DNA of 35,435 nt from contig CAUJGH010000040.1 of NCBI GenBank assembly GCA_963169575.1, positions 1 through 35,435 of the forward strand. Reading direction: 5' to 3'. Made by a program: the position numbers and the translations under genes. This document shows, in pieces, positions 12,213 to 18,059 of the stretch. This DNA is from Myxococcota bacterium (lineage in GTDB: Bacteria; Myxococcota_A; UBA9160; UBA4427). Each line of letters starts with the position of its first letter. The first letter of the stretch is position 1. The notes under the pieces were generated by a model. It was given only the letters and a program-made list of their open reading frames with translations. It did no database searches and was not told the DNA's origin.

Positions 12213-13621
12213 CGATTGTTCCCCTCTTCACCCATCTGCCGACCGACGGCGGATTTGACGGCCCGGAACTTACCATTGGGCTCGCGCGGGATCTCCTGCA
12301 GCCGGACGAGCTCGATGCGGATCTGGTCGCCGACACGCGAGCGGATCTCCTTGATCAGCCCGGCCTCGGCGCGCGCATCGAAGGACGGGCGCGGGACGAT
12401 GCGGACCTCGATCGCCTCGGGCGTCTCCTGGACGATCTGCGCTTCGGCGACGTCGAGCTGCTCCTTGAAGATGTGGTCGAGGCGGCCGATCCAGCGGCCG
12501 TCGGGGGTCACGACGTAGTCCTCGATGCGGCCGTCGACGTCGAGGAAGACGTCGCCGGGGCGGCCGCAGGGGCAGGGGCGCTTGGCGCGGGTCCCGACGT
12601 CGCCGATCCGGTAGCGGATGAAGGGCGTGGCATCGTTGGCGAAGCCGGTGACGAGCAGCGGGCCGCGCACGAAATGCTCGTTCTCCTCTTCGATCTCGAC
12701 CTCGACGATCCCGAACTCCATGTCGACGTGGAGCAGGCCCTCGCGGCAGGCGGTCATGGAGACGGCGAACTCGCTGGTGCCGTAGCGGTCGAAAATCGGG
12801 GCGGCGAAGGCGTGCTCGATGGTCTCGCGCTGGAAGGCGAGCAGCGATTCCGAGGAGGTGAAGATCGCGCGGAGCTTGCCGGCCGGGAGCGGGCGGCCGG
12901 CGTCGAGCATCGCGCGGCCGAGCAGGTGGAGCGACGAGGGATAGCCCTGGACATAGGCGGCGGGGATCGCGTGGAGCGCGTCGATGTAATGCGGAAGGTT
13001 CGCGCGCGTCATGTGGTAGAGGGAGAAGAGCGTCTGGCGGCCCCAGGCGTTCGTCCGCCAGTAGGGTGGGCGCGCCTGCGCCATCGGGACGAGCAGCTGC
13101 CCGCCGAACGAGAAATGCGGATCGAACAGGCCGATGCCGACGCTCGTGCGCAGGCGCCAGACGGCAGCGTATTCCTCGGCGAGGGCTTCTGGCGTGTACC
13201 AGAGCGGGAGCGCGGTTCCGGTGGTTCCGCTCGTCTTGCCCTTCAGCAGGCGGCGGGGCGGGATGTCGGCGGCGATGAAGGACTCGGGATCGACGCGATA
13301 GTCGGCCTTCTCGAGCACGGGAAAGGCCGCGAGCATCGCCTCGATCCCGCGCTGCGGATCCGCTTCGCAGCGGGGCTCGGGGAGCGCGAGCTTCGCATAA
13401 TGCGGGACGTGCCGGCGTGCACGCGAGGCGAGCGCGAAGAGCCGCTCCTGCTGGATGCCGTGCAGCCGCTCGCGGGAGGAGCGGCCGGATTCCTGCCATT
13501 CCCGCAGCCGGCGATGAAAATGGGGCGTGAAGCGCGTCCGGGCGCGGCGGTAGCCCGCCCAGGTACAAGCCAGGTTCTGGAGCGGGACCGGCATCGCTGC
13601 GTAGAGGCCGTCCAGCGTCAC
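12209..13621 (-). CDS. Phenylacetate-CoA ligase family (PaaK / CapK / F390-synthetase-like) adenylate-forming enzyme.
   Basis: This is the C-terminal 470 codons of the 872-aa track ORF. The real start is taken as GTG 13621, which forms a GTGA overlap with the upstream stop. It has the AMP-binding P-loop KGKTSGTTGTALPLWY, plus FDRYGTSE and a C-terminal NGKFRAV. The upstream 400 codons of the track ORF are Arg/Pro/Gly junk overlapping another gene. Confidence 0.8.
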   Translation of the reverse strand: MTLDGLYAAMPVPLQNLACTWAGYRRARTRFTPHFHRRLREWQESGRSSRERLHGIQQERLFALASRARRHVPHYAKLALPEPRCEADPQRGIEAMLAAFPVLEKADYRVDPESFIAADIPPRRLLKGKTSGTTGTALPLWYTPEALAEEYAAVWRLRTSVGIGLFDPHFSFGGQLLVPMAQARPPYWRTNAWGRQTLFSLYHMTRANLPHYIDALHAIPAAYVQGYPSSLHLLGRAMLDAGRPLPAGKLRAIFTSSESLLAFQRETIEHAFAAPIFDRYGTSEFAVSMTACREGLLHVDMEFGIVEVEIEEENEHFVRGPLLVTGFANDATPFIRYRIGDVGTRAKRPCPCGRPGDVFLDVDGRIEDYVVTPDGRWIGRLDHIFKEQLDVAEAQIVQETPEAIEVRIVPRPSFDARAEAGLIKEIRSRVGDQIRIELVRLQEIPREPNGKFRAVKSAVGRQMGEEGNNR

Positions 13622-14706
13622 AGATCCGGATCCGCTTCTTCCCTCTTCCCGATCCGCACCTCCGCCACGACCGGCAGATGGTCCGAAGCCCGCCGCGCCG
13701 CCGGCGAGTCGTGCTGCCGGACCTCGAGGACCTCGGCCTGGCGCGTGTAGATGCGGTCGAGGGCGAGCATCGGGCGGCCGGCGGGGAAGGTCGCGGGCCA
13801 GTCGCGGTTGTGATGGAGACCTAACGAGGCTTCGAGCGCCTGGGAGCCCTTGCATTTGCGCCAGGCGTTCATGTCGCCCATCAGCACGGCGGGCCCGCTG
13901 TTGAGCGCGGGATGCTCGAGCAGCGACTGGACCTGGCGATGGCGCGTGCGGTCGACGAGCGAGAGATGGGTCGCGACGACGCCGATGCCGGCGTGCTCCT
14001 CGCCGATGTACGCAGCGAGCGCCCCGCGGCGCTCGATGCGCGAGTAGGAGATGTCGAGCACCGAGATGGCCGTGATCGGATAGCGCGAGAGGATCGCGTT
14101 GCCGAGCTGGCCGAGGCGATGCTGGCGGGTCACGGCGAAGGCGAGATGCAGCTCGAGCTCGTCGCAGAGCATCCCGAGCGGATCCTCGCCGCCGCGCACG
14201 TCGAAGGCGCCGGAGAGGCTCGTCGAGGGGAAGGGCCGCAGGACCTCCTGCAGCGCGATGACGTCCGCATCGAGCTCGGAGATGACGTAACCCGCGCGCG
14301 CGACGTCCGGCTCGGCCCGGCCGTTGCCGCCCTGCCAGCGATGGACGTTGTAGGTCGCGATCCGCAAGTTGTCCCGCATCACGCTCGGCCGTATCGGCCG
14401 CCGCGGGCTCATCACGAAGCACAAATGGGGCGGGGCGGCGCCGGCCATCCGGTCCCGGGTCTGGTCGCGGAATTCCCGGGCGCGGGCGACGGATCCGTCG
14501 CGGGCCCGGCGCGCGAGATCCTTCGCGCGGGCGGTCGCCGTCGCCGTCGCCTTGCTCGCTGCCTGCGTCGCCTTGCTCGCCGCTTGGGTCGCCTGGCCGC
14601 TCGCGCGCGCTGCCTGGGCGCCAGCCCGGGCGGCCCGGACGCGGACGACCCGCGCCGCGCGCCGAACACCGCGCTTGCCGCGGGCGACCTGCTCGTCGAC
14701 TGCCAC
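13618..14706 (-). CDS. Endonuclease/exonuclease/phosphatase (EEP) family protein with a basic Ala/Lys/Arg-rich N-terminal extension.
   Basis: EEP motifs are present: RIATYNVHRW, ALQEV, ATHLS, GDMNAW, SDHLPV. The start is uncertain. I chose GTG 14706 because GAGGGAG lies 9 nt upstream and third-position GC stays very high in this frame back to there. Alternative ATG starts at 14448, 14412 and 14379 lack an SD. The track ORF (start 15426) overlaps the upstream gene and is rejected. Confidence 0.6.
   Translation of the reverse strand: MAVDEQVARGKRGVRRAARVVRVRAARAGAQAARASGQATQAASKATQAASKATATATARAKDLARRARDGSVARAREFRDQTRDRMAGAAPPHLCFVMSPRRPIRPSVMRDNLRIATYNVHRWQGGNGRAEPDVARAGYVISELDADVIALQEVLRPFPSTSLSGAFDVRGGEDPLGMLCDELELHLAFAVTRQHRLGQLGNAILSRYPITAISVLDISYSRIERRGALAAYIGEEHAGIGVVATHLSLVDRTRHRQVQSLLEHPALNSGPAVLMGDMNAWRKCKGSQALEASLGLHHNRDWPATFPAGRPMLALDRIYTRQAEVLEVRQHDSPAARRASDHLPVVAEVRIGKREEADPDL
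14546..14598. repeat. 21-bp imperfect tandem repeat (~2.5 copies) inside the basic N-tail coding region of the EEP gene.
   Basis: The units are gtcgccttgctcgctgcctgc / gtcgccttgctcgccgcttgg / gtcgcctggcc. On the minus strand they encode QATQAASKATQAASKAT. Confidence 0.8.
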
Positions 14707-14852: not shown

Positions 14853-15437
14853 TCAGCGCGGCCGCGGCGGCGGCTCGGGCGGCAGATCGCGGCTCTCGAC
14901 GATGTCCCGCCCGGCGCGCCGGGCGTTCGCGATCGCGTGGTCGCAGAGCTTCCGAAGGACGTCCGAGAGCACGAGCATCACGCGATCCGACGTATTGAAC
15001 CCCGAGCCCTCGCGGATGTAGGTCTTGAGCTTGCTGGCGACGACCAGGATGTCGGTCGGGAGGCTCTCGTCCTCGTCGGTGTCCGCCGAGGCGCGGCGCA
15101 CGATCGTGCGCGGCGCCGATCCGGCCCCGGGGCTCGAGCCGGCCCCCGATCCGGCCCGGCCGGCGGTCGAGCCCGACCCCGAGACCGGTCCGTGGCCCGA
15201 GGTCGCCCGCATGCGCGGGGCGCCCTCGGGCGGATCGGGCACCTTCGGCGCCCGCTTCTCGACCGCCCAGGCCTCGCGGTGGCGCTCGGTCGGCAGGTGG
15301 ATCTCCCAGCAATCGACGGAGCAGAAGACCAGCGCCGTCCGCACGCGATTGCAGGTCGAGACGCTGCAGACCCAGTAGACCGCCGAGAGCGCGATGTCGT
15401 TCTTGCACGCGCTGCAGCGCCGCCATCGTTCGGCCAT
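14853..15437 (-). CDS. Zinc-finger (ZZ/cross-brace type) + histone-fold fusion protein (bacterial ZZ-histone-like).
   Basis: 194-aa ORF with very high GC3. The N-terminus is CSAC-x12-CSVSTC-x9-CSVDC-x3-H-x5-H (8 Zn ligands), followed by a G/S/A/P linker. The C-terminus is DILVVASKLKTYIREGSGFNTSDRVMLVLSDVLRKLCDHAIANARRAGRDIVESRDL. As far as I recall, this resembles Bdellovibrio-type bacterial histones / DUF1931. An SD-like GAGAGGGAGAAG lies upstream. Confidence 0.7.
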   Translation of the reverse strand: MAERWRRCSACKNDIALSAVYWVCSVSTCNRVRTALVFCSVDCWEIHLPTERHREAWAVEKRAPKVPDPPEGAPRMRATSGHGPVSGSGSTAGRAGSGAGSSPGAGSAPRTIVRRASADTDEDESLPTDILVVASKLKTYIREGSGFNTSDRVMLVLSDVLRKLCDHAIANARRAGRDIVESRDLPPEPPPRPR

Positions 15438-15543
15438 CGCGAAGCTCTTCTCCCTCTCTTCATCAGGGATTCGCCGAGGATTCTTCGGGCCCTCGTCGAG
15501 CCCATTTCGAGCCGGGCCGACCGACGAGGCCGGCGAGCGTCGC

Positions 15544-16530
15544 CTAACCCGCCTGGCCCTGCACCTTCGGCAGCACGTCGCGCCGGATCGTCTCGAGCGA
15601 CTCCCAGGCGTATTCGATCGGCATGCCGCCGCAGAGCGGCTGCAGCATCAGGGCGCCGTTGTTGCGGATCGCAGTGGCCGCCTCGTCCGGCGACAGGATC
15701 TGGTAGTTGCCGTTCTCGGCGCGCAGGGCCTCGACCGAGGGCGCGAGGCTCTTCGTCGCCGACTCGATGTCGTCGCCCATCCATTCGGCGTAGGCCTGCG
15801 CGTCGTGGAGCAGATGCGGGCCCCATTTCTTCCAGGCCGCGTCGGGATCGCGCGAGACGAAGACCGAGAGCGGGACGCCCGGCTTGGGGTTGATGCAGAG
15901 CCCGGGCTCGCGCCCCTCGGCGCGGCAGGCGTCCTGATAGATCTTCTCGAAGTTCGGATCCCCGCCCATCCCGAGCACCCCGAGCCCGAGCTTCGCCGCC
16001 CGCTTCGCCGTCGCCGGGACACCGCCGCCCAGCATCATCATCGGGCCGCCCGGCGTATGCGGCAGGGGCGTCACTTTGACGCGCCGCCCCTGATAGTCGA
16101 ACTCCTCGCCCTTCCAGAGCCGCTTCATGACCTCGACCGATTCCTCGAGCCGCTTGCCCCGGCCCTTCATCTCGCGGCCGAACATCGCGTACTCCGCCGG
16201 GACATAACCGATCGCGACGACGTACGAGACCCGCCCGCCCGCGACGAGATCGAGGACCGCCATCTGCTCGGCCAGCTCGACGGGGTCGTGGAGCGGCACG
16301 ATCAGCGCCGCGACCTGGATCGAGATCTTCTGCGTCCGCGCCGCCAGCGCCGAGGCCAGGATCAGCGGGGCGGGGAGATAGCCGTCGGCGGAGCGGTGGT
16401 GCTCGCAGACCTGCAGTCCGAGGCAGCCGTTCTGCTCGCCCCAGCTCGCCATCTCGAGCGCCGCCTTATAGAGCTCCGCGCGCGGTGCACCGATCGCCGG
16501 CGCGCGCATGTCGAATCGCATCGTGAACAT
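15544..16530 (-). CDS. LLM-class (luciferase-like) flavin-dependent oxidoreductase.
   Basis: The start is set at ATG 16530 (MFTMRFDMRAP), with a perfect SD AGGAGGA upstream; the track start at 16605 adds an Arg-rich leader. The sequence shows a TIM-barrel LLM pattern (LGLQVCEHH, ALIVPLHDPVELAEQMAVLDLVAGGRV). Confidence 0.75.
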   Translation of the reverse strand: MFTMRFDMRAPAIGAPRAELYKAALEMASWGEQNGCLGLQVCEHHRSADGYLPAPLILASALAARTQKISIQVAALIVPLHDPVELAEQMAVLDLVAGGRVSYVVAIGYVPAEYAMFGREMKGRGKRLEESVEVMKRLWKGEEFDYQGRRVKVTPLPHTPGGPMMMLGGGVPATAKRAAKLGLGVLGMGGDPNFEKIYQDACRAEGREPGLCINPKPGVPLSVFVSRDPDAAWKKWGPHLLHDAQAYAEWMGDDIESATKSLAPSVEALRAENGNYQILSPDEAATAIRNNGALMLQPLCGGMPIEYAWESLETIRRDVLPKVQGQAG

Positions 16531-16751
16531 CGGACGTCCTCCTGCCCGGCGCGTTCGCCCGGCCCGCATCACACGCGCGGGCCTCGCAGCCGACCGGCGC
16601 TGCACGGCGCCGCTCGTCGCCGCGCTGCGCGCCGCCGCCGCCCGATCCTAGACCATCGGCGCGCCCCCGGAGCGATTTCCGATGGCGTCGTGACCGCATC
16701 CGTCACACCCCTGGCCGATGACGGTTCACCCCCTTCGCCCGAGGTCCCCGC
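16531..16751. promoter_or_regulatory. Divergent intergenic region between the LLM gene / long minus-strand gene run and rmuC; promoters are inferred only.
   Basis: A 221-bp gap lies between divergent starts. I recognised no specific boxes. Confidence 0.3.
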
Positions 16752-18059
16752 ATGCCCGCCGAAATCCTTCCCGCCGCCCTCACGCCGCTGTTCGCCCCCG
16801 AGCTCGCCCTCGCGCTCCTGCTCGGCCTGATCCTCGGCGCGCTCCTCGGCGCCTGGCTCGCGACGCGCTTCCACGGCCGCCTGCAGCATGTCCTTCACGA
16901 CCGCTTCGAGGCCCTCTCCGCCCTCGCCCTCGACCGCACGAGCGAGCGCTTCCTGCATCTCGCCGGCGAGCGTCTCGGCTCCCTCGAGCGCGCGAGCGAC
17001 GCCTCGCTCGCCCAGCGCGAGGCCGCCGTCGAGGCCCTCGTCCGCCCGCTTCGCGAATCCCTCGCCCGGGTCGACGCCAAGCTTCAGCAGGTCGAGACCC
17101 AGCGCCAGGGCCACCACGAATCCCTGACCCGCCATCTCGAGCTCGTCGCGAACGCGAATCGCCTGCTCGAGAAGGAGACGCGCAACCTCGGCCAGGCCCT
17201 GCGCTCGCCGAATGCCCGCGGCCGCTGGGGCGAGCTCCAGCTGCGCCGCGTCGTCGAGCTCGCCGGCATGCTCGAACACTGCGATTTCGCGGTGCAGTCG
17301 ACGCTCAATGGCGGAATCGGCGGCGCGAACGGCTTTGCGGACGGGCTCGGCGATGGCGCGGGCGGCCGGGGTGCGGGCCAGGGAGCGAGCGGCGGCCGAC
17401 CCGATCTGATCGTGCGCCTGCCCGGCGGCCGCAGCCTCGCGATCGACGCCAAGGCGCCGCTCGTCGCCTATCTCGCCGCGACCGAGGCGCCGGACGACGC
17501 GTCGCGCGCCGCCGAGCTCGCCCAACACGCCCGTCATGTCCGGCGCCATCTCGAGGAGCTCGCGAGCCGCAGCTACTGGTCGAAGCTGGCCGGCTCGCCG
17601 GAGTTCGTCGTGCTCTTCCTACCCGGCGAGCCCTTCTTCGCCGCCGCTCTCGAGAGCGATCCCGAGCTGATCGCCGACGGCGCCGAGCGCCGCGTCCTGA
17701 TCGCGGGCCCGACGACGCTGATCGCGCTCCTGCGCGCGATCGCCCACGGCTGGCAGCAGGAGGAGATGGCGGAGAACGCCGCCGCCGTCGCGCGCATCGG
17801 CCGCGAGCTCTTCGATCGCCTCGTCGCGCTCAACGAGAAGTTCGGGAGCCTCGGCCGCAAGCTCGATTCCGCCGTCGACGCCTACAACCAGGCGATCGGC
17901 TCGCTCGAATCCCGCGTCCACGTCTCGGCGCGGCGGATGGCGGAGCTGGGAGTCGCGCAGTCGGTCCCGCTCGAAGCGCTGCCGGCGATCGAGAAGCGGG
18001 CGCGGCTGCCGCGGGGGGATGAGGGGGATGCGGAGGGGGGCGGGGACGTGCTGGGCTAG
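16752..18059 (+). CDS. rmuC: DNA recombination protein RmuC.
   Basis: 435-aa ORF with an N-terminal TM helix and coiled-coil. The RmuC core motifs are RSPNARGRWGELQLRRVVELAGM, RPDLIVRLPGGRSLAIDAKAPL and FVVLFLPGEPFF. Confidence 0.85.
   Translation: MPAEILPAALTPLFAPELALALLLGLILGALLGAWLATRFHGRLQHVLHDRFEALSALALDRTSERFLHLAGERLGSLERASDASLAQREAAVEALVRPLRESLARVDAKLQQVETQRQGHHESLTRHLELVANANRLLEKETRNLGQALRSPNARGRWGELQLRRVVELAGMLEHCDFAVQSTLNGGIGGANGFADGLGDGAGGRGAGQGASGGRPDLIVRLPGGRSLAIDAKAPLVAYLAATEAPDDASRAAELAQHARHVRRHLEELASRSYWSKLAGSPEFVVLFLPGEPFFAAALESDPELIADGAERRVLIAGPTTLIALLRAIAHGWQQEEMAENAAAVARIGRELFDRLVALNEKFGSLGRKLDSAVDAYNQAIGSLESRVHVSARRMAELGVAQSVPLEALPAIEKRARLPRGDEGDAEGGGDVLG

Follow-up and report, generated by a model that had tools for sequence, protein, structure and literature searches.

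Histones have been recognised in bacteria only in the last few years, and the ZZ histones are the one subfamily among them with an added zinc finger. In the definition that Schwab et al. introduced (Nat Commun 2024; PMC11390915), ZZ histones have a truncated third helix and carry an N-terminal finger of ZZ type, with one C4 and one C2H2 zinc site, and their histone fold resembles that of the bacterial dimer histones. Here we describe a gene whose product is of this kind, lying in a stretch of 35,435 nucleotides from a Myxococcota bacterium (GTDB lineage Bacteria; Myxococcota_A; UBA9160; UBA4427), which spans positions 1 to 35,435 of contig CAUJGH010000040.1 in assembly GCA_963169575.1 and is called the window in the following. 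The gene had been singled out in an earlier note, prepared from the letters of the DNA, which predicted a fusion between a zinc finger and a histone fold.

The described proteins with which this product can best be compared are the ZZ histones D0LYE7 of Haliangium ochraceum and Bd3044 of Bdellovibrio bacteriovorus and, for the histone fold by itself, the Bdellovibrio histone HBb (Bd0055; PDB entries 8cmp and 8fvx; PMC11317129, PMC10627809). Schwab et al. (2024; PMC11390915) located ZZ histones mainly in Proteobacteria in the broad sense, with a second histone present in just about half of the proteomes that contain one; they also reported that the residues of the eukaryotic ZZ peptide pocket are not conserved in the class, that Bd3044 is poorly expressed and, in their supplement, that an AlphaFold dimer of D0LYE7 has an HBb-like interface with the finger lying outside it. 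The function of the class was left open there, in agreement with the earlier note, which had mentioned a zinc-finger-fused class predicted bioinformatically and having no described function. Bd3044 is unable to replace HBb, and a 2025 preprint indicates that the transcript of the B. bacteriovorus ZZ histone peaks late in growth phase. HBb itself is abundant and probably essential, and it has neither finger nor linker, the dimer histones of its type being single-domain proteins of about 60-70 amino acids. Its main contacts with DNA are N22, R57, S9, T53, T8, S24, K10, K12, K52 and K16, and its loop 2 contains a clamp between R51 and D58 that is supported by D49 (PMC11317129).

The open reading frame (ORF) of the ZZ-histone gene, which both the ORF list and the translation place on the minus strand between an ATG at 15437 and a stop codon ending at 14853, is genuinely coding, because its GC content at third codon positions (GC3) is 0.88 and its differences from eight orthologous loci fall mainly at third positions, for example with counts of 0/0/6 and 1/2/18 at codon positions 1/2/3 over the first 66 codons. 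The 194-residue ORF proposed for these positions in the earlier note is thus real. The window as a whole has 67% GC and contains many spurious overlapping ORFs in other frames and on the opposite strand, several long ones overlapping this gene, as expected at 70% GC; on that ground one might take the present frame for a chance product, or for a pseudogene. Its GC3, its third-position divergence from the orthologues, the homologues of its product in 1660 clusters (at E<=1e-3) and the invariance of its zinc ligands rule this out, and we give it a practically negligible probability.

The product is built as the earlier note had drawn it, from a finger, a linker rich in Gly, Ser, Ala and Pro and a histone-fold domain, and the Cys/His pattern then proposed matches the translation exactly: C8-x2-C11-x12-C24-x4-C29-x9-C39-x3-C43-x3-H47-x5-H53. 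The linker, whose composition and terminal acidic patch were rightly described, has 63 residues (66-128; 60% G/S/A/P). One detail needs adjustment: the histone-like stretch, correctly recognised in the sequence, was misnumbered by one residue, running over 129-185 and not 128-185. Not one of 200,000 shuffled versions of the protein reproduces even a loosened form of the ligand pattern. In an alignment of 58 diverse relatives (the window finger and 57 representatives at 40-66% identity) the eight ligands, and no other columns, are invariant, and their spacing is identical in 225 of the 226 finger-bearing relatives. By analogy with Schwab et al. (2024; PMC11390915), from whom the assignment of ligands to sites is taken and not computed, C8, C11, C39 and C43 would form a putative C4 site, and C24, C29, H47 and H53 a putative C2H2 site. 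AlphaFold2 modelled residues 1-72, on an alignment of 58 fingers, with a predicted local distance difference test (pLDDT) of 90.6 and a predicted template modelling (TM) score of 0.78, and in this model the N-terminal 60 residues are predicted to be an independently folding domain; the invariant ligands and the confident model are compatible with the two-zinc finger that had been predicted. A variant of the finger, in which the loop before the FCS motif is shortened and the ligand spacing altered, is fused to the same histone fold in the relatives P0218, P0223, P0226, P0233, P0248 and P0252.

As to the kind of finger, Foldseek against the PDB ranks the ZZ domain of p62 first (6miu; E 0.16, probability 0.80, TM-score 0.42/0.51), followed at ranks 2-18, with similar scores, mostly by MYND fingers (SMYD2, ZMYND8, ZMYND11) and HIT fingers (subunits of SWR1/SRCAP), as well as by the ZZ domain of BIG. 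The best structural neighbours, weak as they are, therefore include each of the three families, ZZ, MYND and HIT, between which the earlier note had hedged; this weak likeness is structural and does not extend to the Pfam models, whose thresholds are not reached. The Pfam ZZ model (PF00569) leaves the window protein unmatched at E<=10 and none of the 58 family members matches it at E<=1. Weak similarity is seen across these members to zf-FCS, zf-FLZ and DUF7576 (10 members each), zf-HIT (3) and zf-MYND (1), the best family E-values, all weak, being 0.0053 for zf-FCS, 0.16 for zf-HIT and 0.076 for zf-MYND; zf-FCS scores E 0.71 with the window protein itself. Nothing significant was retrieved by a finger profile from the PDB sequences, the best results being a MYM finger (E 0.76) and, at E 0.24, chance matches to the CxxCH of cytochrome c3.

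Like the eukaryotic ZZ domains (PF00569; p62, p300/CBP, HERC2, ZZZ3), the window finger is predicted to bind two zinc ions within about 50 residues, at a C4 and a C2H2 site; unlike them, it belongs to a bacterial finger domain that is net basic, and for its third ligand pair it follows the MYND, HIT and FCS fingers, having C-x3-C inside an F-C-S-x-x-C motif where ZZ domains have C-x2-C. The FCSxxC motif is held in common with the MYND, HIT, FCS and MYM fingers, every match to which stays below the significance and gathering thresholds, and the last ligand pair, H-x5-H, differs from the H-x3-C of MYND fingers. From the model and its neighbours we class it as a predicted two-zinc finger of the ZZ/MYND/HIT kind, all cross-brace folds, for which "ZZ" is a structural label and not a sequence membership in the eukaryotic ZZ family. 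Its net charge is +3 in the window protein and averages +4.2 over 106 representatives, with conserved basic residues at positions 6, 7, 12, 33 and 54. Such a basic finger, lying between ZZ, MYND and HIT and outside eukaryotic ZZ by sequence, argues against the idea of a histone-tail reader.

The relationship of the C-terminal domain is much closer. A single-sequence phmmer search of the PDB aligns residues 129-185 with HBb (8cmp/8fvx) at E 9e-6, and when the histone domains of finger-bearing relatives, 53 in all, are combined into a family profile, HBb is matched from end to end at E 4e-23, in support of the Bdellovibrio-type histone claimed in the earlier note. The same profile matches 9qt0 (4e-12), 9f2c (1e-11) and HmvA (1e-7), as well as the archaeal histones HMfA, HMfB and HPhA at 1e-3 to 1e-5. 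The Pfam model CBFD_NFYB_HMF (PF00808) recognises 14 of the 53 relatives at E<=0.01 (best 5.6e-6) and does not match the window protein. The parallel with DUF1931 (PF09123), which had also been drawn, holds only in part: residues 151-186 align with model positions 19-54 of 138 (36 positions) at E 0.006-0.04, and the 14.4-17.3 bits fall short of the cut-off of 21.8. DUF1931 proteins belong to the histone-fold superfamily, and differ in having two folds per chain, while the window protein has a single fold with most DNA-binding residues kept; they are pseudodimeric and devoid of DNA-binding residues (PMC12701072). The layout of the domain comprises helix 1, loop 1, a long helix 2 and loop 2 with the clamp R177...D184, after which just ten residues follow, six of them Pro, so that the third helix is truncated as in HBb. 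On these sequence comparisons we conclude that the C-terminal domain, of 57 residues, is homologous to HBb of Bdellovibrio and has its short third helix.

The residues by which HBb contacts DNA can be followed through the class. In 64 ZZ representatives S9 is kept in 61, K10 (as Lys or Arg) in all 64, K12 in 59, N22 in 50 and S24 in 57; for loop 2 the figures are 63 for R51, 56 for K52 (as Lys or Arg), 63 for T53 and 64 for both R57 and D58. The window protein retains S135, K136, K138, R142, N148, S150, R177, R183 and D184, which correspond to seven of the ten DNA-contact residues of HBb (S9, K10, K12, K16 as Arg, N22, S24 and R57) and to an intact Arg-Asp clamp (R177, D184). Its substitutions are T8 to Ala, D49 to Ala, K52 to Asp and T53 to Ile, and the Lys-Thr motif of loop 2 is accordingly replaced by D178-I179. 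The loss of the DNA-contact lysine of loop 2 extends to a large Myxococcota clade that includes the window protein. A compensation, whereby the finger would be more basic where this lysine is lost, was considered and rejected, the opposite being seen: the finger of the lysine-less clade is less basic (+2.4 versus +4.2), and there is therefore no sign of DNA binding shifting to the finger. The net charge of the histone fold is unaffected in this clade (+2.7 versus +2.6).

Between the two domains, pLDDT values below 50 extend across most of residues 79-134 in the full-length AlphaFold model, and the linker differs in length among family members, with 31 to 125 residues separating the final zinc-ligand His from the beginning of the histone fold. 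The DNA encoding the Gly/Ser-rich linker contains an imperfect 33-bp tandem repeat (15116-15182; 2.1 copies, 81% matches), a feature that fits length variation by slippage.

Taken with its phylogenetic neighbourhood, which is the same as that of the published ZZ histones (Myxococcota, Bdellovibrionota and "Deltaproteobacteria"), this architecture places the window protein in their class. It shares with D0LYE7 and Bd3044 the C4 + C2H2 finger, the disordered linker and the truncated-third-helix fold, and of the eight ligand positions given in the paper seven correspond to its own at a constant offset, a likeness established by description and ligand numbering. The window protein and its clade depart from these histones in lacking the basic residue of the loop-2 Lys-Thr motif. 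One ligand needs to be qualified: according to the legend of Fig. 4 in Schwab et al., the C4 site has as its fourth Cys C53 (in D0LYE7) or C43 (in the hidden Markov model), which maps two residues before the invariant C43 of the window protein. Among the residues tabulated at position 41 for 106 representatives none is Cys (V 71%, L 7%, P 3%, T 3%; about 16% are not printed), and the mismatch comes either from an error of numbering in the paper or from D0LYE7 being truly different. With HBb the window protein has in common the homology over the whole 57-residue fold, the Arg-Asp clamp and the truncated third helix; because it has 194 residues, with an extra finger and linker, it is filed under the ZZ histones and not under the bacterial dimers. 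It agrees with the published definition of ZZ histones on every testable feature, and it belongs to a known class, catalogued in 2024. Hence the gene adds no new category; it sharpens the picture of the ZZ class and can guide the choice of proteins for biochemistry.

The family also includes variants in which one finger is followed by two tandem histone folds, or in which two tandem folds occur without a finger (P0121, P0122, P0124, P0126, P0128, P0129, P0134, P0136, P0139, P0148 and P0157; also P0231, P0237, P0240 and P0262). In P0121, the one case that was read, the DNA-contact residues are kept in both copies of the fold. The main text of Schwab et al. (2024) contains no passage tying doublet, tandem or pseudodimer architectures to ZZ histones. 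By their sequences, these variants would fit an intramolecular version of the histone dimer, and they suggest that one finger per histone dimer may be enough; those with one finger and two folds lend support to the dimer model presented below. A close homologue of a different sort, P0090 (210 amino acids), has an intact finger and a partly readable histone fold, but reads as basic out-of-frame sequence in its linker, at the beginning of the fold and at its C-terminus; a pseudogene or a frameshift in the assembly is the probable reason.

In functional terms, the fusion raises a question: What would a DNA-binding fold gain from a zinc finger carried at the end of a flexible tether? The explanation that we favour, with moderate confidence, is that the ZZ histone is a low-copy, HBb-like DNA-bending dimer equipped with two flexible zinc-finger heads, serving as an accessory or bridging factor of the nucleoid. 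It starts from the homology, the contact residues, the folded finger and the flexible tether described above, and from these we infer the dimer, the binding and bending of DNA and the function of the heads. Two chains would pair through the histone fold, as HBb does, and the dimer would bend DNA by binding to its backbone along the minor groove, whatever the sequence. The contacts would be made by S135, K136, K138, R142, N148 and S150 of helix 1 and loop 1, together with R183, loop 2 probably contributing less than that of HBb, given the change of Lys-Thr to Asp-Ile, though its Arg-Asp clamp is intact. Each chain would then present a basic two-zinc finger on a tether of about 60 residues, which makes two extra interaction heads per dimer, most likely in contact with nucleic acid or with a partner protein. 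Because Bd3044 is poorly expressed and cannot replace HBb, the copy number is presumed to be low, and the protein would act as an accessory or bridging nucleoid factor instead of a bulk chromatin protein.

Several observations weigh against this explanation. Searches of the literature turned up no ZZ histone that had been characterised by biochemistry or genetics. The Lys position of loop 2 is never basic in the clade, being Q, D, E or L in all 111 of the closest clusters, and the change of Thr to Ile in the same loop is rare, with 6 cases among these 111 close relatives; such changes may reduce or alter the affinity of the window protein for DNA. The full-length AlphaFold model, computed from an alignment of 12 sequences, is poor (pLDDT 52) and was left out of the fold search for that reason; its helices, at 127-145 and 151-174, are where they would be expected. 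Foldseek against the PDB returned no match to the finger at E<=1e-3, all values being at least 0.16, and no Pfam model is matched significantly by the finger, so that its binding partner is a guess.

The heads could instead read peptides. The structural neighbours of the finger include peptide-binding ZZ (p62, BIG) and MYND (SMYD2, ZMYND8/11) domains, and by this token the protein would be an adaptor whose finger binds a short peptide motif, such as the N-terminus or tail of another nucleoid protein, and recruits this partner to histone-bound DNA. Yet in eukaryotic ZZ domains the pockets that receive basic N-termini are acidic, and the bacterial finger is net basic (mean +4.2), and no conserved gene neighbour presents itself as a candidate partner. 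The idea was raised by Schwab et al. (2024), whose data also count against it, in that the eukaryotic pocket is not conserved and a second histone accompanies ZZ histones in about half of the proteomes (PMC11390915). We consider such an adaptor rather doubtful. Lower still in our estimate, and unlikely, is a dimeric regulator in which the finger would bind nucleic acid with specificity for sequence or structure and the histone fold would mainly dimerise, the protein acting locally on transcription or RNA instead of architecturally. In conservation the finger equals or exceeds the histone fold (mean column identity 55% versus 52%); it is basic and bears a weak resemblance to the FCS/MYM type (10 of 58 members, best E 0.005), some fingers of which bind nucleic acids; the clade without the loop-2 lysine and the low abundance of the Bdellovibrio homologue point the same way. 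Such a regulator would have no need, for dimerisation alone, of the remaining HBb DNA contacts, which are strongly conserved, and its finger should hardly be less basic in the very clade that lacks the loop-2 lysine.

A redox or zinc switch seems very improbable by comparison. The finger, with six Cys and two His, would drop its zinc on oxidation or zinc limitation and thereby alter the engagement of the nucleoid by the histone domain; there are other bacterial proteins in which zinc sites rich in Cys serve as redox switches. What speaks for it is composition only, namely six invariant Cys within 46 residues, while the strict C4 + C2H2 pattern is typical of structural zinc sites and no redox or metal-homeostasis genes lie consistently nearby, the LLM oxidoreductase next to the window gene being confined to the close clade. 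Returning to the DNA-bending dimer with two heads, we can conceive a tentative extension of it, to which we attach a low probability: the finger would be a nucleic-acid-binding head instead of a peptide reader, so that ZZ histones would be three-point bridging or looping factors of DNA (or DNA and RNA), and the Asp-Ile pair would retune the fold in the Myxococcota clade. If this were true, the replacement would shift the histone fold toward weaker or different engagement of DNA, and the Asp-Ile clade would constitute a natural separation-of-function variant, useful for dissecting the role of the finger.

The features of the gene and its immediate neighbours are collected in table 1.

Table 1. 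Coordinates of the ZZ-histone gene, of the parts of its product and of neighbouring genes in the window
Feature	Position	Strand	Basis or remark
ZZ-histone-type protein, complete coding sequence, 194 amino acids	14853..15437	-	ORF list and translation; stop codon included
Shine-Dalgarno-like purine stretch GAGGGAGAAGAG, 7-18 nt 5' of the ATG	15445..15456	-	read from the sequence
Predicted two-zinc cross-brace finger domain, residues 5-64	15246..15425	-	ligand conservation, AlphaFold2, Foldseek
Disordered linker rich in Gly/Ser/Ala/Pro, residues 66-128, with acidic patch DTDEDE (119-124) at its end	15054..15242	-	composition, pLDDT
Histone fold with truncated third helix, bacterial-dimer (HBb) type, residues 129-185	14883..15053	-	phmmer, family profile
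Pro-rich C-terminal tail PPEPPPRPR and stop codon	14853..14882	-	translation
EEP-family protein (Exo_endo_phos, E 1e-17) with basic N-terminal tail	13618-14706	-	same direction as ZZ-histone gene
Luciferase-like (LLM) flavin oxidoreductase	15544-16605	-	same direction as ZZ-histone gene
RmuC-family gene	16752-18059	+	divergent from LLM oxidoreductase

The co-directional run noted earlier, with the gene between a flavin oxidoreductase and a basic-tailed EEP protein, is confirmed, the full order being RmuC (divergent), LLM oxidoreductase, ZZ histone, EEP, a CapK-like ligase and DUF362. Between positions 14400 and 15700 we found neither a sigma-70-like promoter nor an intrinsic terminator, and scans of the window for Rfam families and tRNAs gave no matches. 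The closest genome record is a Myxococcota metagenome-assembled genome (MAG), L008, in which the ZZ histone is 85% identical and the neighbours 91-98%. In a tblastn comparison of 86 loci the neighbours were confined to loci whose ZZ histone has an identity of 53% or more (the neighbours there showing 53-98%), sometimes with other genes inserted between them, and they are missing from about 55 more distant loci; clustering of the flanking ORFs in the latter revealed no alternative neighbour common to more than six. Because the order is confined to close relatives and missing from the distant loci, the comparison indicates that the run is inherited synteny and not a conserved functional module, and a functional link with the LLM oxidoreductase, EEP protein, RmuC, CapK-like ligase or DUF362 was rejected. 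Since no neighbour is conserved beyond the close clade, the ZZ histone would be a stand-alone gene, and in the absence of a conserved operon partner its genomic context will not reveal its function. The genome scan, which was made with a closer finger alignment, reached only relatives sharing WRRCSACK or VDCWE[IV]HL, and the taxonomic breadth it returned is a lower bound.

Several public MAG records that carry the ZZ-histone gene, among them L007, L018, L023, L026, L031, L049 and L057, bear titles naming Spirochaetaceae, Spirochaetales, Opitutales or Enterobacterales. The neighbouring genes are the same as in the Myxococcota records for L007, L023 and L031 at least, and these titles are probably mistaken as to taxonomy. 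A defence or phage origin was also rejected, with no PADLOC matches for the histone, EEP and LLM proteins, no PHROG matches and no relative in viral contigs. The RmuC gene matches the PADLOC model "RTasRmuC" (DRT) at E 7e-45, with the RmuC part alone aligned.

The EEP gene starts with GTG, preceded by the ribosome-binding site GAGGGAG, and its product has an N-terminal tail of about 125 amino acids rich in Ala, Arg, Lys and Gln, with near-repeats (QATQAASKATQAASKATATATARAK). This tail is translated, because 27 related loci preserve it at 39-78% identity, and its resemblance to low-complexity basic DNA-binding tails suggests a putative nuclease or phosphatase directed to nucleic acids. At the other end of the run, the first 8500 positions of the window have a GC content of 0.55-0.59 versus about 0.70 in the remainder. 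They encode two GT4 glycosyltransferases, a methyltransferase and a DUF6259 protein, adjoin the GFO/IDH, DUF362 and CapK-like genes and probably represent a horizontally acquired surface-polysaccharide island.

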